Assembly (NCBI GenBank): GCA_951406725.2
Contig: OX597842.1
Coordinates: 19,096,001-19,160,000, forward strand
DNA from: Octopus vulgaris
Taxonomy: Eukaryota
Length of the DNA: 64,000 nt
Direction: 5' to 3'
Each line of letters begins with the position of its first letter. Positions within the stretch are counted from its first letter, which is position 1. Positions 23,077 to 48,591 of the stretch are shown piece by piece. The translations under genes and the position numbers were made by a program. The notes under the pieces are model-generated. The model worked only from the letters and a program-made list of their open reading frames with translations, was not told where the DNA came from and made no database searches.

Positions 23077-23145
23077 TAGCTGTAGAAGCAAAAGTCGTGT
23101 TGAAGATACATCAAGGTCAAAATAAAATCAAAGGTACCCAAAGTG
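23077..23145 (+). CDS. Micro-exon type P (69 nt): LAVEAKVVLKIHQGQNKIKGTQS
   Basis: TTTTCACAG|...|GTAAGA, phase 1-1. Completes the signal peptide with a V-E-A cleavage motif. Confidence 0.75.
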
Positions 23146-23327
23146 GTAAGAAAGTTAATAAACCCTTTTTGAATCCTTTAAATTAGACACTCGCATACAT
23201 GTGTGTGTATGTAAGTCTCTCTCTGTCTTTCTCTCTCTCTATATATATATATATAGATTCCTGTTCATCAAACGTAAAATCTGAAATCAGAATTTTTTTT
23301 TTTTTGATTCTTTCACAATGGATGTAG

Positions 23328-23381
23328 AAGTCAAACTGGGGCCAGACATAAAAGCAGATGAAACCAAGGATTCCCGAAATG
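23328..23381 (+). CDS. Micro-exon type Q (54 nt): EVKLGPDIKADETKDSRN
   Basis: PolyT tract, ATGTAG|...|GTAAGA, phase 1-1. Confidence 0.65.
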
Positions 23382-23451
23382 GTAAGAAAGTTTATAAACC
23401 CTTTTTGAATCCTTTAAATTAGACACTAACATAAATGTGTGTATATGTAAG

Positions 23452-23489
<38 letters not shown>

Positions 23490-24578
23490 GTGTAATAAAT
23501 AAAATATATGCATACATACAAACATATATGTACGTACCTACATCTACATGTATATATACATGCATATATAAATATATATACGTGAGTACAGGACACTACA
23601 ACTAGACGTAGAACTCAACGAGAAACGAAAAAGCAAAAACAAGCATGGAACAGACCGTTTTTTTAACAACGAAAAAACCTAAGTTATTTTACTAAATTCT
23701 TTGTCATATTTAAAAGTAATTGAAAGAAACACAGCATCTCAAAATATAGTAACGAAAAGGTTAAGGAAGGTTAAAGAGCTAGAAATACAAATCGGAGGGG
23801 CCACTAGAGCTGTACTTTGCTTGTAGTGTTGAAATGGCTGCTGGGGGTCAATTTAGGATTTTGTTGCTAAAATTTCTGTTTAATTAATTCCTTATAGTTT
23901 TATTATACTATAAGGTGCAGGAGGGGCTGTGTGGAAAGTAGCTTGGTTACCAACCACATGGTTCCAGGTTCAGTCCCACTGCGTGGCACCTTGGGCAAGT
24001 ATCTTCTACTATAGCTTCAGGCTGACCAAAGCCTTGTGAGTGGATTTGGTAGACGGAAACTGAAAAGAAGCCCATCGTATATATATACGAAATCAGCCAA
24101 AATTGCTACGATGATCCAGTTCTTGACTGAAGATTGAAGGCTTCGAATGTCCCGTCTGTGTTTTTTGTGTCGTCTTCTAAGTGTTTTGCGTTCTTGCCCC
24201 AGTTTGTATTTTTCTACATATAATAATAAAATATATATATATGTGTGTGTGTGTTTGTGTGTCTATGTTTGTCCCCCCCGATATCGCTTAACAACCGATG
24301 CTGGTGTGTTTACGTCCCCGTAACTTAGCGGTTCAGCAAAAAGAGACCAATAGAATAAGTCCTGGGGTCGATTAGCTCGACTAAAAGCGGTGCTCCAGCA
24401 TGGCCACAGTCAAATGACTGAAAAGAGTAAAAGAGAATCAGAGGGTCCACTAGAGCTGTACTTTGCTTCTAGCGTTGAAATGGCTATTGGGGGCCAATTT
24501 AGGATTTTGTTGCTAAAATTTGTTTAATTGCTTATAGTTTTATAAAAGGCAATATATCCAAATATTTTGTTCTTATAG

Positions 24579-24635
24579 GTGGTGAAAGCAGAACTGATAC
24601 AAGTAGTGGTGGATCTTCTACTACTATCAGACCTG
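24579..24635 (+). CDS. Micro-exon type R (57 nt): GGESRTDTSSGGSSTTIRP
   Basis: TTTTGTTCTTATAG|...|GTAAGT, phase 1-1, Ser/Thr/Gly-rich. Confidence 0.7.
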
Positions 24636-24849
24636 GTAAGTGGGTTTCCTATTACATTTAGCGTTTGTGGCTAGAAACCTCATTCGTAATTCTTTCTTCA
24701 ATACCACCCAATCTGTAAAAAAAGGCATCTGAAAACCTTAGAAATACCCTACAGTCTAGATGTATTACAAAGGTCAGCATTACTTGGGCCTGCATGCATA
24801 TTGTTTAAAGTACTGTCTGTCTGAGGTTCTAGCTGAGACTTGACAAACA

Positions 24850-25200
24850 GTCCTGCTCGTGTCAGAGCATAAACAGCCACCAGTCTGAGGACACCCCTGT
24901 CACTACTGTTCATGTCCAGTATCACCAACTTAACTTGAGGGTCTACGAAGATAGGCCCCTCTGGAAAAACACTGCAGTTTCACCTTGTATTCCTGGTTGA
25001 CATGGAGATAAATAGATCTTGGAAATGGCCAGAGAGTCTGGTTTCACTGATGGTCACGACATCAACACTTAGTGACCTGAGGTCATTGAGTAGATGGCCC
25101 TGTTTCCAAGACAACCCAGGCCACATGCATTTATACTGCCTATTCCGAACAAGGCCATATCGGGTTAGACTACGGAAGAAGAAAAGGTTACTCACAGTAC
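24850..25200 (-). mobile_element. L1/Tx1-type APE endonuclease fragment (second copy at about 47870-48140)
   Basis: GLSWKQGHLLNDLRSLSVDVVTISETRL resembles the N-terminus of a LINE APE endonuclease. Confidence 0.6.
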
Positions 25201-25750
25201 TTTTGTGGGGATGGATGTTCCATCCTCATTGGTATATATGGATGTTTCAAGGCAGCAAGCTGGCAGAGACGTTAGCACGGCAGGCGAAATGCTTAGTGGT
25301 ATTTCGTCCGCCGCTGCGGTCTGAGTTCAAATTCCGCCGAGGTCGACTTTGCATTTCATCCTTTCGGGGTTGATAAATTAAGTACCAGTTATGCACTTAT
25401 CCGTTTGTCCCCTCTGTGTTTAGCCCCTTGTGGGTAGTAAAGAAACAGGTATATACTCTCTTTACTTGTTTCAGTCATTTGACTGAGGCCATGCTGGAGC
25501 ACCGCCTTTAGTCAAGCAAATCGACCTCGGGACTTATTCTTTGTAAGCCCAGTACTTATTCTATCGGTCTCTTTTGCCGAACCGCTAAGTGACAGGGATG
25601 TAAACACACCAGCATCGGTTGTCAAGCAATGCTAGGGGGACAAACACATACATACATATACATATATACTTCTACTATAGCCTTGGGCCAACCAAAGCCT
25701 TGTGAGTGGATTTGGTAGATGGAAACTGAAAGAAGCCCGTCGTATATATG

Positions 25751-25783
<33 letters not shown>

Positions 25784-25975
25784 TTGTCCCCCCAACATCG
25801 CTTGACACCCAATTCTGGTGTAGTTGCATCCCCGTCACTTAGCAGTTCGGCAAAAGAGACAGATAGAATAAGTTCTAGGCTTACAAAGAATAAGTCCTGG
25901 GGTTGATTTGCTTGACTAAAGGCGGTGCTCCAGCATGGCCGCAGTCAAATGACTGAAACAAGTAAAACAGTAGTG

Positions 25976-26018
<43 letters not shown>

Positions 26019-26780
26019 GTGTGTGTGTGTGTGTATATATATATTTGTGTATACATATGTATATATATATATGTGTATGTATATATATATTTGTGTATAC
26101 ATATGTATATATATATGCGTGAGTATATATATATATATATATATATATACGTGTGTGTGTGTGTGTATATATATATATATTTGTGTATACATATGTGTGT
26201 GAGTATATCTATATATATCATCATCGGTTGATGTCTGCTTGGATGATTTGACTGAGGTCTGGCGAACCAGATGGCTGCACCAGACTCCAATCTGATCTGG
26301 CAGAATTTCTACAGCTGGATGCCCTTCCTAACGCCAACCACTCCGAGAGAGTAGTGGGTGCTTTTACGTGCCACCAGTACGAGGGTCACTCAAGCGGTAC
26401 TGGCAGGGACCATGCTCAAATTGTGCTTTTTATGTGCCACCTGCACACGAGCCAGTCCACCAACACTGGCAACGACCTCGCTCAAATGTTTTTTCACGTG
26501 CCAGTAGTATTTATATGTATATGCATATATATTTGTATATATATATATGTATACATGATGTGCAACATTTTGGCTAGACATGGCTAGTTTAAATGGTAGA
26601 TAGTTTTTAACGATTGAACTGAGAACCACATTTTCAATAACCTCTCTCGAAAATTCTACAGTATAGAACATGTAACTTCATCTCCTGTTAATTAGTATTT
26701 AATTATTGTAAAAGAAATAGTAAATAGTCCTGTTGATAAAACGTAAAATCTGAAAACGATTTTTTTAGTCATTTTCCCAG

Positions 26781-26849
26781 GAGGTGTAGGAGTAAAAGAC
26801 GTGTTGAAGATACATCGAATTCAAAATGAAAGCAAAGGTTCCCAAACTG
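26781..26849 (+). CDS. Micro-exon type P copy (69 nt): GGVGVKDVLKIHRIQNESKGSQT
   Basis: TTTTCCCAG|...|GTAACG, phase 1-1, with an N-E-S sequon. Confidence 0.6.
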
Positions 26850-26959
26850 GTAACGATTGAACTGAACCACATTTTCAATAACCTCTCTCGAAAATTCCAC
26901 AGTATAGAACATGTAACTTCATCTCCTGTTAATTAGTATTTTTTTTGTCATTTTCACAG

Positions 26960-27028
26960 TAGTTGTAGGAGTAAAAGAAGTGTTGAAGATACATCGAGAT
27001 GAAAATATAATCGAAGGTACCCAAACTG
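26960..27028 (+). CDS. Micro-exon type P copy (69 nt): VVVGVKEVLKIHRDENIIEGTQT
   Basis: TTTTCACAG|...|GTAAGA, phase 1-1. Confidence 0.68.
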
Positions 27029-27204
27029 GTAAGAAAGTTAATAAACCCTTTTTGAATCCTTTAAATTAGACACTCGCATACATGTGTGTGTATGTAAGTC
27101 TCTCTCTGTCTTTCTCTCTCTCTCTATATATATATATAGATTCCTGTTCATCAAACGTAAAATCTGAAATCAGAATTTTTTTTTTTTTGATTCTTTCACA
27201 ATAG

Positions 27205-27258
27205 AAGTCAAACTGGGGCCAGACACAAAAGCAGATGAAACCAAGGATTCCCGAAATG
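27205..27258 (+). CDS. Micro-exon type Q copy (54 nt): EVKLGPDTKADETKDSRN
   Basis: TTCTTTCACAATAG|...|GTAAGA, phase 1-1. Confidence 0.7.
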
Positions 27259-27347: not shown

Positions 27348-27387
<40 letters not shown>

Positions 27388-28247
27388 AACTAATAAATAA
27401 AACATAGGAACGCACGCATCCATTTCTAAGTAAGATTGTTCTTGATATTAATAATGATGCAAACTCTTGACCTTTCTCAGCCTTCATTCTTTCTGGTTTC
27501 CTTTTCTTCTACCTTACTGTCTCTCCCTCTCTCATTCTTCATTCTTTCTGGTTTCCTCACAACCATTCCCTTCTGTTGCTCCTTCGCCGTTCTCAAAAAT
27601 AGCATTCGTAATACTTTATCTCGTTGGCTTAACGGCCCTTCTTGTCTGGTTATTCTCCTTGTCCTGTCTTTTACTCTTTATATTTTGTACTTTCGTTACT
27701 GTCCTGTTTTTGTTACCATTTTTACCCCTCCGCAAAAAGATCTCAAATTTTATTTGATTTGCTTTTTGCGGGAAGGAAAGTTTCTATCGAAGATGCATAA
27801 CGCCTTCACCTTCGAAACGCAGAGTAGATGAAACCATGGCGACTGAAGAAGGGGAATTTTCCTTGAGTTATTTGTCCTGTACTCTATTTTTTCGTTGTTT
27901 AAGAAAAATGTCCAGTTCCTTGGTTTTGTGTTTATGGTTTCCTTTCTCATTGTGTTCGACGTTTTCTTGGTGTCCTGTACCCATATATGCATGTATATAT
28001 ACAAGTATACGTACGTATATGTATGTATATATGCATATGTTTTATTTATTAATTTATTATATGACGGAACGCACATATCCATTTCTAAGTAAGATTGTTC
28101 TATATATATATACATATATAAAATTTGTGTTTGTAGGTATGCAAAATGGTGTCTTCTTTCTATCAATCCCTCTATACCAAATACACTCACTTTGGTTGTC
28201 CCTGGGCTATAATTACTTTTTAATTATTGTAACAAAAATAGTAAATA

Positions 28248-28923
28248 CTAGCACTATGACCTGGTAACGCTGGGTCATAGTGCTAGTGCATGCATATACA
28301 GCTGCGTGTGCGCGCACATGCATGCGAGTACTGTCCAAATCTCCGATCAATCACATACGGCTAGCTGGCATTCAATTGGCGTATCAAGTTTCAGGCATTT
28401 TGATTGGGTTTTGGATAGAAAATTCACAAAAAGTCACTTCTATTGAATTTTAAATGGCTTTGCGGAGAGACTGGGGAAATGTAATGATGTGCACGACCAC
28501 CCTTGAACGGTTTTGAATGACCATAGAAAGTGCAAGCCCTCTAACTGAAAAATTGTGGATTTGTATAAAGGATACGCACACAGACATTTTGCCATTTATA
28601 TATATATTTAATGGCTTTGCGGGGTGACTGAGGAAATGTAAAGATGTGCACGACCACCCTTTTACGGTTTTGAATGACCATAGAAAGTGCAAGCCCTCTA
28701 ACTGAAAAATTGTGGATTTGTATAAAGGATACGCACACAGACATTTTGCCATTTATATATATATTTAATGGCTTTGCGGGGTGACTGAGGAAATGTAAAG
28801 ATGTGCACGACCACCCTTTGACGGTTTTGAATGACCATAGAAAGTGCGAGCCCTCTAACTGAAAAATTGTGGATTTGTATAAAGGACACACAGACAGACA
28901 TTTTGACATTAAATATATATAGA
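28248..28923 (-). mobile_element. Non-autonomous Helitron with internal tandem subrepeats of about 152 bp (full copies also at about 34477-35158, 37641-38159 and 45099-45773)
   Basis: The minus strand starts A|TCTATATATAT...AAAATGTCTGT and ends with hairpin CACTATGACC..GGTCATAGTG plus CTAG|T. No TSD. Confidence 0.75.
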
Positions 28924-28987
28924 TTCCTGTTCATCAAACGTAAAATCTGAAATCAGAATTTTTTTTTTTTTTATTCTTTCACAATAG

Positions 28988-29047
28988 ATGTAGAAGTCAA
29001 ACCGACAACAGGAACAAAAGCAGATGATACCCAAGGTTTCCAAAATG
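28988..29047 (+). CDS. Array micro-exon variant A (60 nt): DVEVKPTTGTKADDTQGFQN
   Basis: CACAATAG|...|GTAAGA, phase 1-1. Confidence 0.7.
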
Positions 29048-30222
29048 GTAAGAAAGCTAATAAACCCTTTTTGAATCCTTTAAATTGGGCGCTCATTTGA
29101 ATCCTATCTGCTGTTTCTTTCTCTTAACTCATAGAATTTAGTCATTGCTTTGTTTGTGTTTTTTGAATCTTTTAAATGTTTATTCCAACCAAGCAGTTCC
29201 CTAGCACGACTCAGTTCCCAATAGTGACTGTCTTTCAGAAAAAAATAACCGCTCTGAATCCACCCAGGGTTACCTTTCTGTGGAGTTTACCATTAACCCT
29301 TTCATTACCAACCTAAGTGAAACCGCCTCTGGCTCTGTGGTACAAATGTCTTGTTTTCATAAGTTTTGAATTAAAATCTTTCACCAAACCTTAGTCACAA
29401 TTTATGTTCCTAACACTAGCTTAATGATAACTAAGTTATTTTACTAAATTCTTTGTTATATTTAAAATTAATTGAAAGAAACACAGAGAATCTCAACAGA
29501 ATATGGTAACAAAAGGGTTAAAAATATATAATAGAGAAACAATTCTTAACCCTTTTGATACCAACCCGGCTGAAACCACTTCTAGCTCTGAGTACAAATG
29601 TCTTGTTTTCATAAGTTTTGAATTAAAATCTTCAACCAAACCTTAGTCACAATTTATGTTCCTAACACTAGCTTAATGATAACTAAGTTATTTTACTAAA
29701 TTCTTTGTTATATTTAAAATTAATTGAAAGAAACACAGAGTATCACAACAAAAATAGGGTAACAAAAGGGTTAAATCCTTTTTCTTTAACATTATTCTTT
29801 TTTTTCAAAATAATTGTTTCAAACATCATTTACGTTAACATTGGTGGGTTTTTTTAAAATTTTTGTTTTTATAAATATTTTGTGTGATTTGTTTGGTTTT
29901 AGCCAATATGGCTACAATTGTATTACAACTGAAAAATTGTGGGTTTGTATAAAGGACACACACACAGACATTTTGCCGTTTATATATATATATTTAATGG
30001 CTTTGCGGGGTGACTGAGGAAATGTAAAGATGTGCACGACCACCCTTGGACGGTTTTGAATGACCATAGAAAGTGTGAGCCCTCTAACTGAAAAATTGTG
30101 GATTTGTATAAAGGACACACAGACAGACATTTTGACATTAAATATATATAGATTCCTGTTTATCAAACGTAAAATCTGAAATCAGAATTTTTTTATTTTT
30201 TATTCTTTCACAATTGATGTAG

Positions 30223-30276
30223 AAGTCACACCGACAACAGGAACAAAAGCAGATGATACCGAAGGTTTCCAAAATG
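30223..30276 (+). CDS. Array micro-exon variant B (54 nt): EVTPTTGTKADDTEGFQN
   Basis: ATGTAG|...|GTAAGA, phase 1-1. Confidence 0.62.
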
Positions 30277-32021
30277 GTAAGAAAGCTAATAAACCCTTTT
30301 TGAATCCTTTAAATTGGGCGCTCATTTGAATCCTATCCGCTGTTTCTTTCTCTTAACTCGTAGAATTTAGTCATTGCTTTGTTTGTGTTTTTTGAATCTT
30401 TTAAATGTTTATTCCAACCAAGCAGTTCCCTAGCACGACTCAGTTCCCAATAGTGACTGTCTTTCAGAAAAAAATAACCGCTTTGAATCCACCCAGGGTT
30501 ACCTTTCTGTGGAGTTTACCATTAACCCTTTCGTTACCAACCCAAGTGAAACCGCCTCTGGCTCTGTTGTACAATAGTCTTGTTTTCATAAGTTTTGAAT
30601 TAAAATCTTCCACCAAACCTTAGTCACAATTTATGTTCCTAACACTAGCTTAATGATAACTAAGTTATTTTACTAAATTCTTTGTTATATTTAAAATTAA
30701 TTGAAAGAAACACAGAGCATCTCAACAGAATATGGTAACAAAAGTGTTAAAAATATATAATAGAGAAACAATTCTTAATCCTTTTGATACTAACCTGCCT
30801 GAAACCGCCTCTGGCTCTGTGGTACAAATGTCTTGTTTTCATAAGTTTTAAATTAAAATCTTTCACCAAACCTTAGTCACAATTTATGTTCCTAACACTA
30901 GCTTAATGATAACTAAGTTATTTTACTAAATTCTTTGTTATATTTAAAATTAATTGAAAGAAACACAGAGAATCTCAACAGAATATGGTAACAAAAGGGT
31001 TAAAAATATATAATAGAGAAACAATTCTTAACCCTTTTGATACCAACCCGGCTGAAACCACTTCTAGCTCTGAGTACAAATGTCTTGTTTTCATAAGTTT
31101 TGAATTAAAATCTTCAACCAAACCTTAGTCACAATTTATGTTCCTAACACTAGCTTAATGATAACTAAGTTATTTTACTAAATTCTTTGTTATATTTAAA
31201 ATTAATTGAAAGAAACACAGAGTATCACAACAGAAATAGGGTAACAAAAGGGTTAAATCCTTTTTTCTTTAACATTATTTTTTTTTTCAAAATAATTGTT
31301 TCAAACATCATTTACGTTAACATTGGTGGGTTTTTTTTAAATTTTTGTTTTTATAAATATTTTGTGTGATTTGTTTGGTTTTAGCCAATATGGCTACAAT
31401 TGTATTACAACTGAAAAATTGTGGGTTTGTATAAAGGACACACACACAGACATTTTGCCGTTTATATATATATATTTAATGGCTTTGCGTGGTGACTGGG
31501 GAAATGTAAAGATGTGCACGACCACCCTTTGACGGTTTTGAATGACCATAGAAAGTGCGAGCCCTCTAACTGAAAAATTGTGGGTTTGTATAAAGGACAC
31601 ACACACAGACATTTTGTTGTTTATATATATATATTTAATGGCTTTGCGGGGTGACTGGGAAATGTAAAGATGTGCACGACCACCCTTTGACGGTTTTGAA
31701 TGACCATAGAAAGTGCGAGCCCTCTAACTGAAAAATTGTGGGTTTGTATAAAGGACACGCACACAGACATTTTGTTGTTTATATATATATATTTAATGGC
31801 TTTGCGGGGTGACTGGGGAAATGTAAAGATGTGCACGACCACCCTTGGACGGTTTTGAATGACCATAGAAAGTGTGAGCCCTCTAACTGAAAAATTGTGG
31901 ATTTGTATAAAGGACACACAAACAGACATTTTGACATTAAATATATGTAGATTCCTGTTTATCAAACGTAAAATCTGAAATCAGAATTTTTTTATTTTTT
32001 ATTCTTTCACAATTGATGTAG

Positions 32022-32075
32022 AAGTCACACCGACAACAGGAACAAAAGCAGATGATACCGAAGGTTTCCAAAATG
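32022..32075 (+). CDS. Array micro-exon variant B (54 nt)
   Basis: Identical to 30223-30276, splice sites intact. Confidence 0.62.
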
Positions 32076-33924
32076 GTAAGAAAGTTAATAAACCCTTTCT
32101 GAATCCTTTAAATTAGACACTAACATAAATGTGTGTGTATGTAAGTCTCTCTCTGTCTTTCTCTCTTTATATATATATATTCATTTGAATCCTATCTGCT
32201 GTTTCTTTCTCTTAACTCATAGAATTTAGTCATTGCTTTGTTTGTGTTTTTTGAATCTTTTAAATGTTTATTCCAACCAAGCAGTTCCCTAGCACGACTC
32301 AGTTCCCAATAGTGACTGTCTTTCAGAAAAAAATAACCGCTTTGAATCCACCCAGGGTTACCTTTCTGTGGAGTTTACCATTAACCCTTTCATTACCAAC
32401 CCAAGTGAAACCGCCTCTGGCTCTGTTGTACAATCGTCTTGTTTTCATAAGTTTTGAATTAAAATCTTTCACCAAACCTTAGTCACAATTTATGTTCCTA
32501 ACACTAGCTTCATGATAACTAAGTTATTTTACTAAATTCTTTGTTATATTTAAATTTAATTGAAAGAAACACAGAGCATCTCAACAGAATATGGTAACAA
32601 AAGGGTTAAAAATATATAATAGAGAAACAATTCTTAATCCTTTTGATACTAACCTGCCTGAAACCGCCTCTGGCTCTGTGGTACAAATGTCTTGTTTTCA
32701 TAAGTTTTAAATTAAAATCTTTCACCAAACCTTAGTCACAATTTATGTTCCTAACACTAGCTTCATGATAACTAAGTTATTTTACTAAATTCTTTGTTAT
32801 ATTTAAAATTAATTGAAAGAAACACAGAGTATCTCAACAGAATATGGTAACAAAAGGGTTAAAAATATATAATAGAGAAACAATTCTTAATCCTTTTGAT
32901 ACCAACCCGGCTGAAACCACTTCTGGCTCTGAGTACAAATGTCTTGTTTTCATAAGTTTTGAATTAAAATCTTCAACCAAACCTTAGTCACAATTTATGT
33001 TCCTAACACTAGCTTAATGATAACTAAGTTATTTTACTAAATTCTTTGTTATATTTAAAATTAATTGAAAGAAACACAGAGTATCACAATAGAAATAGGG
33101 TAACAAAAGGGTTAAATCCTTTTTCTTTAACATTATTTTTTTTTTTTCGAAATAATTGTTCCAAACATCATTTACGTTAACATTGGTGGGTTTTATTTTA
33201 ATTTTTGTTTTTATAAATATTTTGTGTGATTTATTTGGTTTTAGCCAATATGGTTACAATTGTATTACAACAGTGCTTCTATCATCATCATCATCATCAT
33301 TTTGACAGTGTCGAAACATTTAAGAATCAATTGGTTCTGACAACCAGGATTTTCAAAGTGTATATGTGTGTGTGTATATATATATATATATACTCTCTTT
33401 ACTTGTTTCAGTCATTTGACTGCGGCCATGCTGGAGCACCGCCTTTAATCAAGCAAATCGACCTCGGGACTTATTCTTTGTAAGCCCAGTACTTATTCTA
33501 TCGGTCTCTTTTGCCGAACCGCTAAGTGACAGGGATGTAAACACACCAGCATCGGTTGTCAAGCAATGCTAGGGGGACAAACACAGACACACATACACAT
33601 ACATATACATATATACTTCTACTATAGCCTTGGGCCAACCAAAGCTTTGTGAGTGGATTTGGTAGATGGAAACTGAAAGAAGCCCTTCGTATATATGTTT
33701 ATATATATATATGTGCGTGTGTGTCTGTTTGTCCCCCCAACATCGCTTGACACCCAATGCTGGTGTTGTTGCATCCTCGTCACTTAGCAGTTCGGCAAAA
33801 GAGACCGATACAATAAGTACTAGGCTTACGAAGAATAAGTCCCGTGCTCGATTTGCTCAACTAAAGGTGGTGCTCCAGCATGGCCACAGTCAAATGACTG
33901 AAACAAGTAAAACAGTAATGTAAG

Positions 33925-33970
<46 letters not shown>

Positions 33971-35226
33971 CTTTTCGCGGGAAGGAAAGTTTCTATCGAA
34001 GATGCGCATCGCCTTCACCTTCGAAACGCAGAGTAGATGAAACCATGGCGACTGAAGAAGGGGAATTTTCCTTGAGTTATTTGTCCTGTACTCTATTTTT
34101 TCGTTGTTTAAGAAAAATGTCCAGTTCCTTGGTTTTGTGTTTATGGTTTCCTTTCTCATTGTGTTCGACGTTTTCTTGGTGTCCTGTACCCATATATGCA
34201 TGTATATATACAAGTATACGTACGTATATGTATGTATATATGCATATGTTTTATTTATTAAATTATTTATTAATTTATTATATGACGGAACGCACACATC
34301 CATTTCTAAGTAAGATTGTTCTATATATATCTATATATATACATATATAAAATGTATGTTTGTAGGTATGCAAAATGGTGTCTTCTTTCTATCAATCCCT
34401 CTATACCAAATACACTCACTTTGGTTGTCCCTGGGCTATAATTACTTTTTAATTATTGTAACAAAAATAGTAAATACTAGCACTATGACCTGGTAACGCT
34501 GGGTCATAGTGCTAGTGCATGCATATACAGCTGCGTGTGCGCGCACATGCATGCGAGTACTGTCCAAATCTCCGATCAATCACATATGGCTAGCTGGCAT
34601 TCAATTGGCGTATCAAGTTTCAGGCATTTTGATTGGGTTTTGGATAGAAAATTCACAAAAAAGTCACTTCTATTGAATTTTAAATGGCTTTGCGGAGAGA
34701 CTGGGGAAATGTAATGATGTGCACGACCACCCTTTGACGGTTTTGAATGACCATAGAAAGTGTGAGCCCTCTAACTGAAAAATTGTGGGTTTGTATAAAG
34801 GACACACACACAGACATTTTGCCGTTTATATATATATATATTTAATGGCTTTGCGGGGTGACTGAGGAAATGTAAAGATGTGCACGACCACCCTTTGACG
34901 GTTTTGAAAGACCATAGAAAGTGCGAGCCCTCTAACTGAAAAGTTGTGGGTTTGTATAAAGGACACGCACACAGACATTTTGTTGTTTATATATATATAT
35001 TTAATGGCTTTGCGTGGTGACTGGGAAATGTAAAGATGTGCACGACCACCCTTTGACGGTTTTGAATGACCATAGAAAGTGCGAGCCCTCTAACTGAAAA
35101 ATTGTGGATTTGTATAAAGGACACACAGACAGACATTTTGCCATTAAATATATATAGATTCCTGTTCATCAAATGTAAAATCTGAAATCAGAATTTTTTT
35201 TTTTTATTCTTTCACAATTGATGTAG

Positions 35227-35280
35227 AAGTCAAACCGACAACAGGAACAAAAGCAGATGATACCAAAGGTTTCCAAAATG
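35227..35280 (+). CDS. Array micro-exon variant C (54 nt): EVKPTTGTKADDTKGFQN
   Basis: ATGTAG|...|GTAAGA, phase 1-1. Confidence 0.62.
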
Positions 35281-37078
35281 GTAAGAAAGCTAATAAACCC
35301 TTTTTGAATCCTTTAAATTGGGCGCTCATTTCAATCCTATCCGCTGTTTCTTTCTCTTAACTCATAGAATTTAGTCATTGCTTTGTTTGTGTTTTTTGAA
35401 TCTTTTAAATGTTTATTCCAACCAAGCAGTTCCCTAGCACGACTCAGTTCCCAATAGTGACTGTCTTTCAGAAAAAAATAACCGCTTTGAATCCACCCAG
35501 GGTTACCTTTCTGTGGAGTTTACCATTAACCCTTTCATTACCAACCCAAGTGAAACCGCCTCTGGCTCTGTTGTACAATCGTCTTGTTTTCATAAGTTTT
35601 GAATTAAAATCTTTCACCAAACCTTAGTCACAATTTATGTTCCTAACACTAGCTTCATGATAACTAAGTTATTTTACTAAATTCTTTGTTATATTTAAAA
35701 TTAATTGAAAGAAACACAGAGCATCTCAACAGAATATGGTAACAAAAGGGTTAAAAATATATAATAGAGAAACAATTCTTAATCCTTTTGATACTAACCT
35801 GCCTGAAACCGCCTCTGGCTCTGTGGTACAAATGTCTTGTTTTCATAAGTTTTAAATTAAAATCTTTCACCAAACCTTAGTCACAATTTATGTTCCTAAC
35901 ACTAGCTTCATGATAACTAAGTTATTTTACTAAATTCTTTGTTATATTTAAAATTAATTGAAAGAAACACAGAGTATCTCGACAGAATATGGTAACAAAA
36001 GGGTTAAAAATATATAATAGAGAACCAATTCTTAATCTTTTTGATACCAACCCGGCGGAAACCACTTCTGGCTCTGAGTACAAATGTCTTGTTTTCATAA
36101 GTTTTGAATTAAAATCTTCAACCAAACCTTAGTCACAATTTATGTTCCTAACACTAGCTTAATGATAACTAAGTTATTTTACTAAATTCTTTGTTATATT
36201 TAAAATTAATTGAAAGAAACACAGAGTATCACAATAGAAATAGGGTAACAAAAGGGTTAAATCCTTTTTCTTTAACATTATTTTTTTTTTCGAAATAATT
36301 GTTTCAAACATCATTTACGTTAACATTGGTGGGTTTTATTTTAATTTTTGTTTTTATAAATATTTTGTGTGATTTATTTGGTTTTAGCCAATATGGCTAC
36401 AATTGTATTACAACAGTGCTTCTATCATCATCATCATCATCATTTTGACAGTGTCGAAACATTTAAGAATCAATTGGTTCTGACAACCAGGATTTTCAAA
36501 GTGTATATGTGTGTGTGTATATATATATATATATACTCTCTTTACTTGTTTCAGTCATTTGACTGCGGCCATGCTGGAGCACCGCCTTTAATCAAGCAAA
36601 TCGACCTCGGGACTTATTCTTTGTAAGCCCAGTACTTATTCTATCGGTCTCTTTTGCCGAACCGCTAAGTGACAGGGATGTAAACACACCAGCATCGGTT
36701 GTCAAGCAATGCTAGGGGGACAAACACAGACACACATACACATACATATACATATATATATACATATATACTTCTACTATAGCCTTGGGCCAACCAAAGC
36801 TTTGTGAGTGGATTTGGTAGATGGAAACTGAAAGAAGCCCTTCGTATATATGTTTATATATATATATGTGCGTGTGTGTCTGTTTGTCCCCCCAACATCG
36901 CTTGACACCCAATGCTGGTGTTGTTGCATCCTCGTCACTTAGCAGTTCGGCAAAAGAGACCGATACAATAAGTACTAGGCTTACGAAGAATAAGTCCCGT
37001 GCTCGATTTGCTCAACTAAAGGTGGTGCTCCAGCATGGCCACAGTCAAATGACTGAAACAAGTAAAACAGTAATGTAA

Positions 37079-37121
<43 letters not shown>

Positions 37122-38222
37122 CTTTTCGCGGGAAGGAAAGTTTCTATCGAAGATGCGCATCGCCTTCACCTTCGAAACGCAGAGTAGATGAAACCATGGC
37201 GACTGAAGAAGGGGAATTTTCCTTGAGTTATTTGTCCTGTACTCTATTTTTCGTTGTTTAAGAAAAATGTCCAGTTCCTTGGTTTTGTGTTTATGGTTTC
37301 CTTTCTCATTGTGTTCGACGTTTTCTTGGTGTCCTGTACCCATATATGCATGTATATATACAAGTATACGTACGTATATGTATGTATATATGCATATGTT
37401 TTATTTATTAAATTATTTATTAATTTATTATATAACGGAACACACACATCCATTTCTAAGTAAGATTGTTCTATATATATATATATATATATATCTATAT
37501 ATATACATGTATAAAATTTGTGTTTGTAGGTATGCAAAATGGTGTCTTCTTTCTATCAATCCCTCTATACCAAATACACTCACTTTGGTTGTCCCTGGGC
37601 TATAATTACTTTTTAATTATTGTAACAAAAATAGTAAATACTAGCACTATGACCTGGTAACGCTGGGTCATAGTGCTAGTGCATGCATATACAGCTGCGT
37701 GTGCGCGCACATGCATGCGAGTACTGTCCAAATCTCAAATCAATCATATACAGCTAGCTGGCATTCAATTGGTGTATCAAGTTTCAGGCATTTTGATTGG
37801 GTTTTGGATAGAAAATTCACAAAAAGTCACTTCTATTGAATTTTAAATGGCTTTGCGGAGAGACTGGGGAAATGTAATGATGTGCACGACCACCCTTGAA
37901 CGGTTTTGAATGACCATAGAAAGTGCAAGCCCTCTAACTGAAAAATTGTGGATTTGTATAAAGGATACGCACACAGACATTTTGCCATTTATATATATAT
38001 TTAATGGCTTTGCGGGGTGACTGAGGAAATGTAAAGACGTGCACGACCACCCTTTGATGGTTTTGAATGACCATAGAAAGTGCGAGCCCTCTAACTGAAA
38101 AATTGTGGATTTGTATAAAGGACACACAGACAGACATTTTGACATTAAATATATATAGATTCCTGTTCATCAAACGTAAAATCTGAAATCAGAATTTTTT
38201 TTTTTTTTTTCTTTCACAATAG

Positions 38223-38282
38223 ATGTAGAAGTCAAACCGACAACAGGAACAAAAGCAGATGATACCCAAGGTTTCCAAAATG
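38223..38282 (+). CDS. Array micro-exon variant A (60 nt)
   Basis: CACAATAG|...|GTAAGA, identical to 28988-29047. Confidence 0.68.
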
Positions 38283-39866
38283 GTAAGAAAGCTAATAAAC
38301 CCTTTTGAATCCTTTAAATTGGGCGCTCATTTGAATCCTATCTGCTGTTTCTTTCTCTTAACTCATAGAATTTAGTCATTGCTTTGTTTGTGTTTTTTGA
38401 ATCTTTTAAATGTTTATTCCAACCAAGCAGTTCCCTAGCACGACTCAGTTCCCAATAGTGACTGTCTTTCAGAAAAAAATAACCGCTCTGAATCCACCCA
38501 GGGTTACCTTTCTGTGGAGTTTACCATTAACCCTTTCATTACCAACCTAAGTGAAACCGCCTCTGGCTCTGTGGTACAAATGTCTTGTTTTCATAAGTTT
38601 TGAATTAAAATCTTCCACCAAACCTTAGTCACAATTTATGTTCCTAACACTAGCTTCATGATAACTAAGTTATTTTACTAAATTCTTTGTTATATTTAAA
38701 ATTAATTGAAAGAAACACAGAGTATCTCAACAGAATATGGTAACAAAAGGGTTAAAAATATATAATAGAGAAACAATTCTTAATCCTTTTGATACTAACC
38801 TGCCTGAAACCGCCTCTGGCTCTGTGGTACAAATGTCTTGTTTTCATAAGTTTTAAATTAAAATCTTTCACCAAACCTTAGTCACAATTTATGTTCCTAA
38901 CACTAGCTTCATGATAACTAAGTTATTTTACTAAATTCTTTGTTATATTTAAAATTAATTGAAAGAAACACAGAGTATCTCAACAGAATATGGTAACAAA
39001 AGGGTTAAAAATATATAATAGAGAAACAATTCTTAACCCTTTTGATACCAACCCGGCTGAAACCACTTCTGGCTCTGAGTACAAATGTCTTGTTTTCATA
39101 AGTTTTGAATTAAAATCTTCAACCAAACCTTAGTCACAATTTATGTTCCTAACACTAGCTGAATGATAACTAAGTTATTTTACTAAATTCTTTGTTATAT
39201 TTAAAATTAATTGAAAGAAACAGTGAGTATCACAACAGAAATAGGGTAACAAAAGGTTAAATCCTTTTTCTTTAACATTATTCTTTTTTTCAAAATAATT
39301 GTTTCAAACATCATTTACGTTAACATTGGTGGGTTTTTTAAAAATTTTTGTTTTTATAAATATTTTGTGTGATTTGTTTGGTTTTAGCCAATATGGCTAC
39401 AATTGTATTACAACTGAAAAATTGTGGGTTTGTATAAAGGACACACACACAGACATTTTGCCGTTTATATATATATATTTAATGGCTTTGCGTGGTGACT
39501 GGGGAAATGTAAAGATGTGCACGACCACCCTTTGACGGTTTTGAATGACCATAGAAAGTGCGAGCCCTCTAACTGAAAAATTGTGGGTTTGTATAAAGGA
39601 CACGCACACAGACATTTTGTTGTTTATATATATATATTTAATGGCTTTGCGGGGTGACTGGGGAAATGTAAAGATGTGCACGACCACCCTTGGACGGTTT
39701 TGAATGACCATAGAAAGTGTGAGCCCTCTAACTGAAAAATTGTGGATTTGTATAAAGGACACACAGACAGACATTTTGACATTAAATATATGTAGATTCC
39801 TGTTTATCAAACGTAAAATCTGAAATCAGAATTTTTTTATTTTTTATTCTTTCACAATTGATGTAG

Positions 39867-39920
39867 AAGTCACACCGACAACAGGAACAAAAGCAGATGA
39901 TACCGAAGGTTTCCAAAATG
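39867..39920 (+). CDS. Array micro-exon variant B (54 nt)
   Basis: ATGTAG|...|GTAAGA. Confidence 0.62.
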
Positions 39921-41154
39921 GTAAGAAAGTTAATAAACCCTTTCTGAATCCTTTAAATTAGACACTAACATAAATGTGTGTGTATGTAAGTCTCTCTCTG
40001 TCTTTCTCTCTTTATATATATATATTCATTTGAATCCTATCTGCTGTTTCTTTCTCTTAACTCATAGAATTTAGTCATTGCTTTGTTTGTGTTTTTTGAA
40101 TCTTTTAAATGTTTATTCCAACCAAGCAGTTCCCTAGCACGACTCAGTTCCCAATAGTGACTGTCTTTCAGAAAAAAATAACCGCTTTGAATCCACCCAG
40201 GGTTACCTTTCTGTGGAGTTTACCATTAACCCTTTCATTACCAACCCAAGTGAAACCGCCTCTGGCTCTGTTGTACAATAGTCTTGTTTTCATAAGTTTT
40301 AAATTAAAATCTTTCACCAAACCTTAGTCACAATTTATGTTCCTAACACTAGCTTCATGATAACTAAGTTATTTTACTAAATTCTTTGTTATATTTAAAA
40401 TTAATTGAAAGAAACACAGAGAATCTCAACAGAATATGGTAACAAAAGGGTTAAAAATATATAATAGAGAAACAATTCTTAACCCTTTTGATACCAACCC
40501 GGCTGAAACCACTTCTAGCTCTGAGTACAAATGTCTTGTTTTCATAAGTTTTGAATTAAAATCTTCAACCAAACCTTAGTCACAATTTATGTTCCTAACA
40601 CTAGCTTAATGATAACTAAGTTATTTTACTAAATTCTTTGTTATATTTAAAATTAATTGAAAGAAACACAGAGTATCACAATAGAAATAGGGTAACAAAA
40701 GGGTTAAATCCTTTTTCTTTAACATTATTCTTTTTTTTCAAAATAATTGTTTCAAACATCATTTACGTTAACATTGGTGGGTTTTTTTTTAATTTTTGTT
40801 TTTATAAATATTTTGTGTGATTTGTTTGGTTTTAGCCAATATGGCTACAATTGTATTACAACTGAAAAATTGTGGGTTTGTATAAAGGACACACACACAG
40901 ACATTTTGCCGTTTATATATATATATTTAATGGCTTTGCGGGGTGACTGAGGAAGTGTAAAGATGTGCACGACCACCCTTTGACGGTTTTGAATGACCAT
41001 AGAAAGTGTGAGCCCTCTAACTGAAAAATTGTGGATTTGTATAAAGGACACACAGACAGACATTTTGACATTAAATATATATAGATTCCTGTTTATCAAA
41101 CGTAAAATCTGAAATCAGAATTTTTTATTTTTTATTCTTTCACAATTGATGTAG

Positions 41155-41208
41155 AAGTCACACCGACAACAGGAACAAAAGCAGATGATACCGAAGGTTT
41201 CCAAAATG
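41155..41208 (+). CDS. Array micro-exon variant B (54 nt)
   Basis: ATGTAG|...|GTAAGA. Confidence 0.62.
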
Positions 41209-42952
41209 GTAAGAAAGCTAATAAACCCTTTTTGAATCCTTTAAATTGGGCGCTCATTTCAATCCTATCCGCTGTTTCTTTCTCTTAACTCATAGAATTT
41301 AGTCATTGCTTTGTTTGTGTTTTTTGAATCTTTTAAATGTTTATTCCAACCAAGCAGTTCCCTAGCACGACTCAGTTCCCAATAGTGACTGTCTTTCAGA
41401 AAAAAATAACCGCTTTGAATCCACCCAGGGTTACCTTTCTGTGGAGTTTACCATTAACCCTTTCGTTACCAACCCAAGTGAAACCGCCTCTGGCTCTGTT
41501 GTACAATAGTCTTGTTTTCATAAGTTTTGAATTAAAATCTTCCACCAAACCTTAGTCACAATTTATGTTCCTAACACTAGCTTAATGATAACTAAGTTAT
41601 TTTACTAAATTCTTTGTTATATTTAAAATTAATTGAAAGAAACACAGAGCATCTCAACAGAATATGGTAACAAAAGTGTTAAAAATATATAATAGAGAAA
41701 CAATTCTTAATCCTTTTGATACTAACCTGCCTGAAACCGCCTCTGGCTCTGTGGTACAAATGTCTTGTTTTCATAAGTTTTAAATTAAAATCTTTCACCA
41801 AACCTTAGTCACAATTTATGTTCCTAACACTAGCTTAATGATAACTAAGTTATTTTACTAAATTCTTTGTTATATTTAAAATTAATTGAAAGAAACACAG
41901 AGAATCTCAACAGAATATGGTAACAAAAGGGTTAAAAATATATAATAGAGAAACAATTCTTAACCCTTTTGATACCAACCCGGCTGAAACCACTTCTAGC
42001 TCTGAGTACAAATGTCTTGTTTTCATAAGTTTTGAATTAAAATCTTCAACCAAACCTTAGTCACAATTTATGTTCCTAACACTAGCTTAATGATAACTAA
42101 GTTATTTTACTAAATTCTTTGTTATATTTAAAATTAATTGAAAGAAACACAGAGTATCACAACAGAAATAGGGTAACAAAAGGGTTAAATCCTTTTTCTT
42201 TAACATTATTCTTTTTTTTCAAAATAATTGTTTCAAACATCATTTACGTTAACATTGGTGGGTTTTTTTTAAATTTTTGTTTTTATAAATATTTTGTGTG
42301 ATTTGTTTGGTTTTAGCCAATATGGCTACAATTGTATTACAACTGAAAAATTGTGGGTTTGTATAAAGGACACACACACAGACATTTTGCCGTTTATATA
42401 TATATATTTAATGGCTTCGCGTGGTGACTGGGGAAATGTAAAGATGTGCACGACCACCCTTGGACGGTTTTGAATGACCATAGAAAGTGCGAGCCCTCTA
42501 ACTGAAAAATTGTGGGTTTGTATAAAGGACACACACACAGACATTTTGTTGTTTATATATATATATTTAATGGCTTTGCGGGGTGACTGGGGAAATGTAA
42601 AGATGTGCACGACCACCCTTTGACGGTTTTGAATGACCATAGAAAGTGCGAGCCCTCTAACTGAAAAATTGTGGGTTTGTATAAAGGACACGCACACAGA
42701 CATTTTGTTGTTTATATATATATATTTAATGGCTTTGCGTGGTGAGTGGGGAAATGTAAAGATGTGCACGACCACCCTTTGACGGTTTTGAATGACCATA
42801 GAAAGTGCGAGCCCTCTAACTGAAAAATTGTGGATTTGTATAAAGGACACACAGACAGACATTTTGCCATTAAATATATATAGATTCCTGTTCATCAAAC
42901 GTAAAATCTGAAATCAGAATTTTTTTTTTTTATTCTTTCACAATTGATGTAG

Positions 42953-43006
42953 AAGTCAAACCGACAACAGGAACAAAAGCAGATGATACCAAAGGTTTCC
43001 AAAATG
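42953..43006 (+). CDS. Array micro-exon variant C (54 nt)
   Basis: ATGTAG|...|GTAAGA. Confidence 0.62.
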
Positions 43007-44552
43007 GTAAGAAAGCTAATAAACCCTTTTTGAATCCTTTAAATTGGGCGCTCATTTCAATCCTATCCGCTGTTTCTTTCTCTTAACTCATAGAATTTAG
43101 TCATTGCTTTGTTTGTGTTTTTTGAATCTTTTAAATGTTTATTCCAACCAAGCAGTTCCCTAGCACGACTCAGTTCCCAATAGTGACTGTCTTTCAGAAA
43201 AAAATAACCGCTTTGAATCCACCCAGGGTTACCTTTCTGTGGAGTTTACCATTAACCCTTTCATTACCAACCCAAGTGAAACCGCCTCTGGCTCTGTTGT
43301 ACAATCGTCTTGTTTTCATAAGTTTTGAATTAAAATCTTTCACCAAACCTTAGTCACAATTTATGTTCCTAACACTAGCTTCATGATAACTAAGTTATTT
43401 TACTAAATTCTTTGTTATATTTAAAATTAATTGAAAGAAACACAGAGTATCTCAACAGAATATGGTAACAAAAGGGTTAAAAATATATAATAGAGAAACA
43501 ATTCTTAATCCTTTTGATACCAACCCGGCTGAAACCACTTCTGGCTCTGAGTACAAATGTCTTGTTTTCATAAGTTTTGAATTAAAATCTTCAACCAAAC
43601 CTTAGTCACAATTTATGTTCCTAACACTAGCTTAATGATAACTAAGTTATTTTACTAAATTCTTTGTTATATTTAAAATTAATTGAAAGAAACACAGAGT
43701 ATCACAATAGAAATAGGGTAACAAAACGGTTAAATCCTTTTTCTTTAACATTATTTTTTTTTTCGAAATAATTGTTTCAAACATCATTTACGTTAACATT
43801 GGTGGGTTTTATTTTAATTTTTGTTTTTATAAATATTTTGTGTGATTTGTTTGGTTTTAGCCAATATGGCTACAATTGTATTACAACAGTGCTTCTATCA
43901 TCATCATCATCATCATTTTGACAGTGTCGAAACATTTAAGAATCAATTGGTTCTGACAACCAGGATTTTCAAAGTGTATATGTGTGTGTGTATATATATA
44001 TATATATATACTCTTTACTTGTTTCAGTCATTTGACTGCGGCCATGCTGGAGCACCGCCTTTAATCAAGCAAATCGACCTCGGGACTTATTCTTTGTAAG
44101 CCCAGTACTTATTCTATCGGTCTCTTTTGCCGAACCGCTAAGTGACAGGGATGTAAACACACCAGCATCGGTTGTCAAGCAATGCTAGGGGGACAAACAC
44201 AGACACACATACACATACATATACATATATATATACATATATACTTCTACTATAGCCTTGGGCCAACCAAAGCTTTGTGAGTGGATTTGGTAGATGGAAA
44301 CTGAAAGAAGCCCTTCGTATATATGTTTATATATATATATGTGCGTGTGTGTCTGTTTGTCCCCCCAACATCGCTTGACACCCAATGCTGGTGTTGTTGC
44401 ATCCTCGTCACTTAGCAGTTCGGCAAAAGAGACCGATACAATAAGTACTAGGCTTACGAAGAATAAGTCCCGTGCTCGATTTGCTCAACTAAAGGTGGTG
44501 CTCCAGCATGGCCACAGTCAAATGACTGAAACAAGTAAAACAGTAATGTAAG

Positions 44553-44598
<46 letters not shown>

Positions 44599-45774
44599 CT
44601 TTTCGCGGGAAGGAAAGTTTCTATCGAAGATGCGCATCGCCTTCACCTTCGAAACGCAGAGTAGATGAAACCATGGCGACTGAAGAAGGGGAATTTTCCT
44701 TGAGTTATTTGTCCTGTACTCTATTTTTTCGTTGTTTAAGAAAAATGTCCAGTTCCTTGGTTTTGTGTTTATGTTTTCATTTCTCATTGTGTTCGACGTT
44801 TTCTTGGTGTCCTGTACCCATATATGCATGTATATATACAAGTATACGTACGTATATGTATGTATATATGCATATGTTTTATTTATTAAATTATTTATTA
44901 ATTTATTATATAACGGAACACACACATCCATTTCTAAGTAAGATTGTTCTATATATATATATACATGTATAAAATTTGTGTTTGTAGGTATGCAAAATGG
45001 TGTCTTCTTTCTATCAATCCCTCTATACTAAATACACTCACTTTGGTTGTCCCTGGGCTATAATTACTTTTTAATTATTGTAACAAAAATAGTAAATACT
45101 AGCACTATGACCTGGTAACGCTGGGTCATAGTGCTAGTGCATGCATATACAGCTGCGTGTGCGCGCACATGCATGCGAGTACTGTCCAAATCTCCGATCA
45201 ATCACATACGGCTAGCTGGCATTCAATTGGCGTATCAAGTTTCAGGCATTTTGATTGGGTTTTGGATAGAAAATTCACAAAAAAGTCATTTCTATTGAAT
45301 TTTAAATGGCTTTGCGGAGAGACTGGGGAAATGTAATGATGTGCACGACCACCCTTGAACGGTTTTGAATGACCATAGAAAGTGCAAGCCCTCTAACTGA
45401 AAAATTGTGGATTTGTATAAAGGATACGCACACAGACATTTTGCCATTTATATATATATTTAATGGCTTTGCGGGGTGACTGAGGAAATGTAAAGATGCG
45501 CACGACTACCCTTAGACGGTTTTGAATGACCATAGAAAGAGTGAGCCCTCTAACTGAAAAATTGTGGGTTTGTATAAAGGACACACACACAGACATTTTG
45601 CCATTTATATATATATATTTAATGGCTTTGCGTGGTGACTGAGGAAATGTAAAGATGCGCACGACTACCCTTAGACGGTTTTGAATGACCATAGAAAGTG
45701 TGAGCCCTCTAACTGAAAAATTGTGGGTTTGTATAAAGGACACACACACAGACATTTTGCCGTTTATATATATA

Positions 45775-46163
45775 CTAGCAGTATCGCCCGGCGTTGCTCG
45801 GGTTTGTAAGGGAAATAATTATATAAGCATTTTTAGAGATGTAAAGTATAATAGCCATCTCAATATGGCTAACCACAAAGTGGGGGGGTGTTACTGTAGC
45901 TTTTTACGTTCTGAGATTTAATAATTAATTTTAGAGAGTTACTTCCCTTATATATGTCAAAAATGGATTAAAAATGGGAAAAATTGATGGTAAATTTTTT
46001 TTAAATCGTAGACTCATCGTAGACGCGCGCTAATACCCAGACGGTCTCTATGAATCACGACTATAAGATACCCGGTTTTGGTTAAACTGCACCACAAAAT
46101 GTGGGAGTAGTTAGGAATCTAAATCGTAGGAGAGACACACAACCTCACTTTTATATATAAAGA
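45775..46163 (-). mobile_element. Non-autonomous Helitron, second family
   Basis: The minus strand reads A|TCTTTATATATAAAAGTGAGG ... CCCGAGCAACGCCGGG (hairpin) CGATACTG-CTAG|T, the classic TC...CTAG termini at an A/T site. Confidence 0.85.
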
Positions 46164-48306: not shown

Positions 48307-48402
48307 ATAAAGAAACAACCAGAGATTCTGAATCTAAAAAAGTAAGAGCCATCATTGCCATCATTATCGTGCTTGTCTGCCTCTTCATATTTGTCGCTGC
48401 AC
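48307..48402 (+). CDS. Transmembrane exon (96 nt): DKETTRDSESKKVRAIIAIIIVLVCLFIFVAA
   Basis: TTATTTATTGCAG|...|GTAAGA, phase 1-1, with an 18-residue hydrophobic stretch. Read-through of the donor would give ...AARKK-stop. Confidence 0.75.
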
Positions 48403-48591
48403 GTAAGAAATGACAGAAACCTTCCAATGTGAACAAAAATTCATTCAAATTTTCTATAAAAAAAGTTTTGGATAAACAAACACCAGTTGTTAAATGGTGG
48501 TGCGAAGTTATTCAGCTTCAAAAAAAAAAAAATCTTCATTTCAAGAATATAAAAAAACAGACTGAGTTGGAATTCCTTTGAGTAATATATA

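Follow-up and report, generated by a model that had tools for sequence, protein, structure and literature searches.

The analyzed window, the stretch C29:19096001-19160000 (64,000 nucleotides of Octopus vulgaris DNA in a 2.80-Gb genome of 227 contigs), contains a higher-order tandem array of small coding exons. The array belongs to an unannotated gene with a predicted membrane anchor, and each of its eight exon-bearing units also carries a Helitron and a composite piggyBac-type miniature inverted-repeat transposable element (MITE). The genomic setting is of the repeat-rich animal type, with long interspersed nuclear element (LINE), Tc1/mariner, and short interspersed nuclear element (SINE)-like sequences all present in the window. 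PiggyBac, MITE, and Helitron families are listed in the available part of a report on an octopus genome (PMC13282606), and the features of the window fit an octopus-type genome.

Organization of the exon array

A search allowing at most 3 mismatches found 8 exon units in the window and 0 in 100 shuffles of it. All of these units lie on the plus strand, head to tail, and span positions 28988-43006 (Table 1). They belong to three variants, arranged along the array as A-B-B-C-A-B-B-C. Variant A (DVEVKPTTGTKADDTQGFQN, K..Q) was found in units 1 and 5, variant B (T..E; ..T......E....) in units 2, 3, 6, and 7, and variant C (K..K; ..K......K....) in units 4 and 8. The eight copies, their ABBC-ABBC order, and their non-synonymous K/T and Q/E/K differences, all reported in a preliminary description of this DNA, were recovered by this search. 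The array itself, placed there at 27765..45775, was also confirmed, with its limits now set at 27757 and 45774.

According to the module map, each unit is built of a Helitron (H) array, an exon module, a spacer of 200 or 266 nt, a MITE (M) array, and a spacer of 150 nt. Tandem Repeats Finder (TRF) gave subrepeat lengths of 157-161 bp for the H family, which replaces the earlier value of 152 bp, and 252-253 bp for the M family. The H arrays of units 1-8 have 3, 1.4, 3.4, 3, 2, 2.4, 1.4, and 3.4 subrepeat copies, respectively, and the ninth, exon-less array has 3. The number of H subrepeats therefore does vary, as had been described, and the measured range among the eight units is 1.4-3.4 copies instead of 1 to 4. 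The M arrays of units 1-8 consist of 2, 3, 3, 3, 3, 2, 3, and 2 subunits. An additional segment of 1.57 kb, herein referred to as the L segment, was found only before unit 1 (partial), unit 4, unit 5, and the exon-less ninth H array, which ends at 45774. The stretch 27385-28024 looked unique in the window, yet its depth in whole-genome contigs is 1e3-1e5; thus, dispersed repeats make up the L segment as well.

Two types of introns follow the B exons. The type-1 intron was found after E2 and E7, and the type-2 intron after E3 and E6, so the two types swap their order between the halves of the array, in agreement with the preliminary description. In the type-2 intron, a 66-nt remnant of an older intron ('agacac...(CT)n(TA)n') is retained; after the other six exons, 'gggcgc' stands in its place.

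Table 1. Positions of the array, its exons and transposons, and the related exons of the same gene in the window.
Feature	Positions	Strand	Remarks
Older, diverged exon units	23080..27258	+	Same frame open; X 23080-23145, Y 23322-23381, X 26784-26849, X 26963-27028, Y 27205-27258
Higher-order tandem array	27757..45774	+	Eight exon-bearing units and a partial ninth (L segment and Helitron, without exon); self-BLAST, module map, TRF
E1, variant A	28988..29047	+	AG kept at 60-nt start; contigs over 28987/28993-29047 only
E2, variant B	30217..30276	+	TG at 60-nt start; usable AG gives 54-nt exon from 30223
E3, variant B	32016..32075	+	54-nt form from 32022; followed by type-2 intron with ancestral 66 nt
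E4, variant C	35221..35280	+	54-nt form from 35227
E5, variant A	38223..38282	+	AG kept at 60-nt start
E6, variant B	39861..39920	+	54-nt form from 39867; followed by type-2 intron
E7, variant B	41149..41208	+	54-nt form from 41155
E8, variant C	42947..43006	+	Last array exon; 54-nt form from 42953
Complete Helitron, unit 1	28248..28923	-	3' hairpin and CTAG, tail of about 205 bp, three 157-bp subrepeats, 5' TC end
Similar Helitron copies	34477-35158; 37641-38159		Complete
Helitron copy	45099-45774		5' end cut by other sequence
Truncated Helitron, short unit 2	29927..30152	-	Cut at subrepeat position 91 and joined to 150-nt spacer; module map
Truncated Helitrons, units 3, 6, 7, 8	31409-31951; 39412-39796; 40860-41085; 42341-42884		Same junction as in unit 2
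Composite MITE, unit 1	29293..29775	+	TTAA / CCCTTT...AAAGGG / TTAA; two 230-bp subunits and 22-nt linker
Similar MITE copies	30522-31257; 32381-33116; 35526-36261; 38527-39261		Three subunits each
Further MITE copies	40226-40708; 41454-42189; 43252-43734		Two, three, and two subunits
Predicted last coding exon	48307..48413	+	DKETTRDSESKKVR, hydrophobic AIIAIIIVLVCLFIFVAA, RKK, TGA; if GTAAGA at 48406 is unspliced

Helitron and MITE components of the unit

The ends of the H element were defined on ten dispersed genomic copies, which have in common with the window only the sequence from about 34463-34541 to 35155-35161. On the element strand (minus), the 5' end reads TCTCTATATA; the outer end TCTC-TATATA was seen in 8 of the 10 dispersed copies, and the preceding base is A in 6 of 8 copies. 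The 3' end consists of a hairpin and CTAG or CTAA (CTRR) in 6 of the 8 copies shown, and CTAG is present in all 4 window copies that have a 3' end. The base after this end is T in 4 of the 6 CTRR copies; the insertion site in the gene is a (TA)n tract, in which the exact joint is not placeable. With a 15-bp stem into which the terminal CTAG falls, the hairpin has a folding energy of -15.2 kcal/mol (z = -5.3), and none of 200 shuffles folds as well (0/200). By these terminal features, the H element is classified as a non-autonomous Helitron with internal 157-bp repeats. Its subrepeat is abundant, with at least 1840 first-look candidates genome-wide, 40 of which were scored.

The 5' end of the Helitron was found 64 nt upstream of each array exon, which matches the approximate distance of 65 bp given previously. 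The truncated Helitrons of five units lack the 3' end, and the string at their junctions is identical at all five positions (29915, 31397, 39400, 40848, and 42329).

Non-autonomous Helitron/Helentron elements with satellite-like tandem repeats have been reported from molluscs (PMC7492417). As described in the available part of that report, they resemble the H element in being short non-autonomous rolling-circle elements with internal tandem repeats, forming dispersed short arrays in a mollusc-type genome. The elements covered in that part are from oysters and form dispersed arrays, whereas here the element belongs to an exon-bearing unit inside a gene (PMC7492417).

For the M element, whose unit is about 483 bp, at least 2945 first-look candidates were found genome-wide and 40 of them were scored. 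The flanks differ in all eight dispersed loci compared (8/8). The left end, TTAA followed by CCCTTTCATTACC, was found in 7 of these loci, the eighth (L027) being not anchored at the left end, and the right end, AAAGGG followed by TTAA, was also found in 7 of the 8. In all eight loci, the homology extends over a block that comprises at least two 230-bp subunits and the 22-nt linker, and its limits are the TTAA ends. Because the homology at dispersed loci covers the whole block, each unit of the array contains one composite MITE and not two or three insertions. The two or three TTAA-flanked MITEs per unit of the preliminary description are thus indeed bounded by TTAA, but they are subunits of one composite and not separate elements. 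By its end features, the M element is a piggyBac-type composite MITE without coding capacity.

Expression and splicing of the array exons

Expression was analyzed in contigs from sequencing runs that were presumed (guessed) to be RNA. Over positions 28915-29292, the summed word depth in runs X1 and X2 is 1093-1930 in the exon bins versus 4.5-18.9 in the intron bins. Contigs at E1 start at 28987 or 28993 and stop at 29047, thus covering the exon only. One contig continues past 29047 into a B exon, which is entered at the AG located 6 nt downstream, and represents an exon-to-exon join. Another contig, 254 nt long and found in X2, leads from the end of an array exon to a loose end that matches the window only at 48311-48334, where the match is exact. 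The same exon-only pattern was found at low depth in run X7, which has another organism label; run X8 gave no contig here, which does not speak for absence. The array exons are spliced into RNA, where they are joined with one another as well as with the exon at 48307. The coding exon proposed in the preliminary description is thus upheld by the exon-only contigs, the exon-to-exon contig, and the contig into the exon for the predicted membrane helix.

All three variants are represented in these data. The letters of variants B and C were found in X2 (position 29032: G in 706 and A in 197 of 903), and an A-type contig in X1. Additionally, exon-plus-intron contigs were found for variant C in run X15 and for variant B in runs X16 and X17, with one variant per run. 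A second loose-end sequence is absent from the window, and an 18-nt piece taken from it was not found in the fetched loci L001-L016 either; the sequence probably comes from a paralogue.

The array exon is 54 or 60 nt long, with symmetric phase. An AG at the 60-nt exon start was found only in units 1 and 5. In the other six units this position is TG and an AG is located 6 nt downstream; thus, the downstream AG must serve as the acceptor, and the exon of 54 nt, or 18 codons, keeps the frame. The lost acceptor is in this way buffered by a second one.

In three further runs, the whole-genome depth is 1e3-1e5 for the control segment 27385-27756, for most of the L segment, and for the Helitron. The flanks of the array are thus high-copy and provide no single-copy baseline for reading its copy number from depth; short contigs, in turn, cannot count units.

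The gene, its predicted anchor exon, and its relatives

The exon at 48307 is predicted to encode a membrane helix, an 18-residue hydrophobic stretch, with a three-residue RKK tail followed by the stop. Since an array exon is joined to this exon, the repeats sit directly before the predicted anchor, and the term "stalk" used in the preliminary description fits them. Per 20 residues, the repeats contain 4-5 Thr and 1 Pro, a modest content by the standards of mucins. The predicted product is a C-terminally anchored surface protein with these repeats as its outer part, and each copy of the unit would add one Thr-rich unit to the outer stalk.

By DNA, the anchor exon is unique in the genome, and no paralogue of it was found in the genome or in the fetched loci. 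A protein search with references of 55-57 residues (the last exon and the read-through of the preceding intron) gave 13 candidates, none at E <= 1, and a second search of this kind gave no candidate. With the last exon alone (35 residues) as the query, a full HMMER scan across 1.84 billion representatives yielded 0 matches. These protein-search results cover the last exon only, in the sets searched. The 5' end of the gene was not found, and comparison with the regions upstream of two paralogues gave nothing usable.

A minus-strand fragment of the composite MITE is located at window 48158-48298, directly before the acceptor of the anchor exon, and a MITE-end-like sequence, TTAACCCTTTTGTTACC, lies about 15-30 nt from the AG of this exon. 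In the paralogue L012, a similar MITE fragment (L012 8117-8199) precedes the last exon by about 200-300 nt.

At least five older exon units are located upstream of the array. They are of two kinds, X (66 nt) and Y (54-60 nt), and none of these older units has a Helitron, a (TA)n tract being present at the corresponding place. The genome contains 22 matches to the exon in total, which are confined to the array, the older part of the same window, and a few other places on two contigs. Further exon copies are located at C29:19.016 Mb, C29:23.018 Mb, and C4:162.755 Mb. All 21 of the 21 X and Y copies analyzed, from 4 loci, are open in one frame.

In the paralogue L012, located 4 Mb away, all three Y exons are preceded by the Helitron, whose 3' flank and adjoining 125-nt segment are the same as in the window. 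In both the window and L012, this segment lies between the (TA)n tract and the 3' end of the Helitron. The type-1 intron sequence and the 200-nt spacer of the array also open the last intron of L012. The last exon of L012 (L012 8413-8532) ends with DMGTIKESGSNAPGTSMPNYAIIIPAIIQCFAAILL and a stop; its hydrophobic tail is at the very end, unlike the helix and RKK of the window, and by sequence resembles a lipid-anchor signal.

The older part of the gene is itself segmentally duplicated, as indicated by two copies on the same contig. One, located 80 kb upstream (L011, C29:19012001-19022000), matches window 19951-23100, including its X exon, at 94%. The other is inverted and lies about 12 kb ahead of the start of the window (L014, C29:19076001-19086000); it matches window 19951-22826, which stops short of the X exon, at 93.5%.

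Origin of the array

The eight units form four pairs, 1~5, 2~7, 3~6, and 4~8. Paired units differ by 3-6 substitutions in 782 nt (0.4-0.8%) and non-paired units by 13-25 (1.7-3.2%). A unit phylogeny, as suggested in the preliminary description, recovered this pairing: in the tree, all eight array exons form one clade (support 0.975) with the pairs (1,5), (2,7), (3,6), and (4,8). Units 2 and 7 both have 1.4 H subrepeats and 3 M subunits and show 0 mismatches over about 900 nt. The longest near-identical stretch in the self-comparison joins 29093-32114 to 40026-43045 (98.8%) and is out of register with the pairing of the units.

Best-match painting revealed that partners switch inside the H and M subrepeat arrays. 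After E1, the first 300 nt or so are like the stretch that follows E5, and the remainder is like the stretches that follow E6 and E7. The H array before E8 is like that of unit 3, save for the last subunit, which is like that of unit 4. On a still finer scale, the site 28788 is common to units 3, 6, and 8, and neighboring sites are common to units 4 and 8.

These observations point to an intragenic, exon-bearing array laden with transposable elements, which was most likely built by repeated unequal homologous exchange between its own repeats, together with gene conversion, and which would lengthen the stalk of the protein. The probability of this reading is, in our estimate, about two in three. 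Repeated unequal exchange between transposon modules had already been put forward in the preliminary description; it fits the pairing, the swapped order of the B units, and the partner switches, as read from one assembly.

The following order of events would produce the array. The Helitron would have inserted into an intron, 64 nt ahead of a Y-type exon, at a time preceding the duplication of the gene, since L012 has the same insertion with the same flanks. The Helitron and the exon would have multiplied together in both genes. The tandem unit would then have arisen from the last Y exon, the opening part of the last intron, and the MITE of that intron; the unit looks like the last Y exon with the start of the last intron because the type-1 intron and the 200-nt spacer are the opening of the last intron in L012. 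The first duplication may have used (TA)n tracts. A single deletion would have given rise to the "short" unit, the junction of which would then have been copied five times. Subsequently, a block of four or five units would have been duplicated, recently, and the swapped order of the B units would have come from no fewer than two later exchanges within the subrepeats of the MITE and the Helitron. In one fitting history, a block A-B3-B2-B3-C would have been duplicated and a different B3 lost from each half by exchange within M and H.

Several points weigh against the origin of the array by unequal exchange and against its reading as a stalk. The tree does not place the Helitron-bearing exons of the paralogue beside the array (support 0.61 or less). 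The event order, with a five-unit ancestor and two deletions, is one of several fitting histories, and gene conversion alone could yield part of the pairing. All structural reasoning draws on a single assembly, and the distance of only 0.4-0.8% between paired units is a plausible allelic distance. On the side of the transcript, the type of the runs is a guess, and short contigs cannot place all eight exons in one transcript. On the side of the protein, the membrane helix and the stop after RKK are predictions read from the nucleotide sequence. A signal peptide and an N-terminal domain were not found (a crude scan for a signal-peptide exon was made), and, as no relative was found in the public protein sets searched, composition is the only guide to function.

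An assembly artefact would require that the true locus has about four units (A-B-B-C) and that the second half is the other allele misplaced in tandem. The window contains 0 N letters, the halves are joined by an ordinary unit linker (E4, spacer, MITE, L segment, Helitron, E5), and the outer flank is unduplicated, as what lies left of 27757 is not found again ahead of unit 5. Moreover, the best long match is out of register with an A-to-A doubling. Such an artefact is therefore improbable, although the pairs are as close as alleles may be, the halves differ by structural changes as alleles of repeat arrays do, and depth, lacking a single-copy baseline, gave no check of the copy number.

We also regard as unlikely an old eight-unit array that was kept pairwise alike by gene conversion, with no recent duplication of a block. 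The fine-scaled mosaic, such as the site 28788 of units 3, 6, and 8 amid the sites of units 4 and 8, and the switching of partners every few hundred bases are what conversion would leave. Nevertheless, all four pairs are similarly close, and paired units match in subrepeat copy number over kilobases, as do units 2 and 7, for which a single duplication is the simpler explanation.

Helitron read-through takes in sequence past the 3' end of the element. Amplification driven by the Helitron, in which rolling-circle read-through would have picked up the exon or carried it along and transposition would have multiplied it, would account for the Helitron end 64 nt from every exon copy, for the same pairing amplified in L012, and for the 125-nt segment shared by both loci, but it is very unlikely, and this part of the preliminary description is not sustained: the exon is not part of the element but sits past its 5' end, on the opposite strand, the Helitrons of 5 of the 8 units lack the 3' end and share one identical junction, the copies are all head to tail at one locus, each with MITE and spacers, and the 22 exon matches are clustered and not scattered like the 1840 Helitron candidates.

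Change of the exon before amplification

The founder exon appears to have changed before it was multiplied. Between the array and other Y exons, 9-15 of 57-60 exon positions differ, versus 1-11 of about 103 positions of the flanking intron, whereas among the other Y exons the exon and flank rates are alike. In comparisons of U1 with five outgroup Y exons, 7-10 codons are residue-changing and 0-1 silent. For exon differences of 12/60 against flank differences of 1/102, the Fisher test gives p = 2.9e-5; for two other outgroups, the values are p = 0.008 and 0.12. Among other changes, PGPD became PTTG; the exon was remade, either by selection or by the replacement of a small patch, before its multiplication.

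A broader proposal can be put forward only tentatively. The gene would belong to a lineage-restricted, highly expressed family of surface proteins composed almost entirely of one-exon repeats; its founder exon would have been remade in a burst of residue changes (PGPDTKADETKGSRN to PTTGTKADDTQGFQN) and multiplied eightfold, with intronic transposons as scaffolds for recombination, so that the load of transposable elements would directly tune the length of the stalk and the array would still vary among individuals.

Comparison with known systems

Exon-bearing intragenic arrays set the length of proteins, as in the human LPA kringle IV-2 repeat and the variable number tandem repeats (VNTRs) of mucins. 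These arrays share with the one analyzed here kilobase units arranged head to tail, each with an in-frame exon, which are spliced in series, are near-identical, and are thought to shift in number by unequal exchange. In contrast, each unit here has a single exon of 54-60 nt, and the rest of it is mostly two transposons with their own subrepeats. According to the available part of one report, mucin VNTRs sit inside one large exon (PMC13345508), unlike the array described here. The hallmark of the LPA and mucin arrays is copy-number variation, whereas the present array is known from a single assembly.

Exons can also be duplicated by unequal recombination between interspersed repeats, for example between two Alu elements. 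As in the Alu-Alu case, direct intronic repeats flank the exon and would supply the homology for misalignment. The repeats here are, however, a Helitron and a piggyBac-type MITE with tandem subunits, and the breakpoints appear to fall within the subunits.

Among the papers listed in literature searches, none deals with this locus or with a repeat unit made of a Helitron and an exon. The array is a well-resolved new example of a known process, in a gene family outside the public protein sets searched. It provides a dissected case in which an intronic Helitron and a composite piggyBac-type MITE travel with an exon as one unit and appear to supply the homology for exchange, and it ties the heavy transposon load of such genomes to change in protein length. 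It also uncovers a gene that is outside the protein sets searched despite the high depth of its exons in some runs. If the number of units varies between animals, the locus would offer a naturally graded series of stalk lengths in a surface protein.

Other features of the window

A C2H2 zinc-finger array enters the window at its left edge (window 1-2350, plus strand), with 20 zf-C2H2 matches in 596 aa. Its units of 84 bp are 95-97% alike and have thus been multiplied recently. An open frame of 569 aa with a reverse transcriptase domain (RVT_1, 8.8e-27) was found at window 10924-12633 on the minus strand; this frame probably represents a young LINE-type element and may lie within an intron of the array gene. 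To the right of the array, an open frame of 259 aa (window 57934-58713, plus strand) contains matches to the Parvo_NS1 helicase (1.4e-13) and to the papillomavirus E1 helicase domain and represents the remnant of a helicase that is either virus-like or of transposon type. At window 59269-60168 on the plus strand, the sequence of a Tc1/mariner-type transposase is divided between two frames (HTH_Tnp_Tc3_2 and DDE_3).

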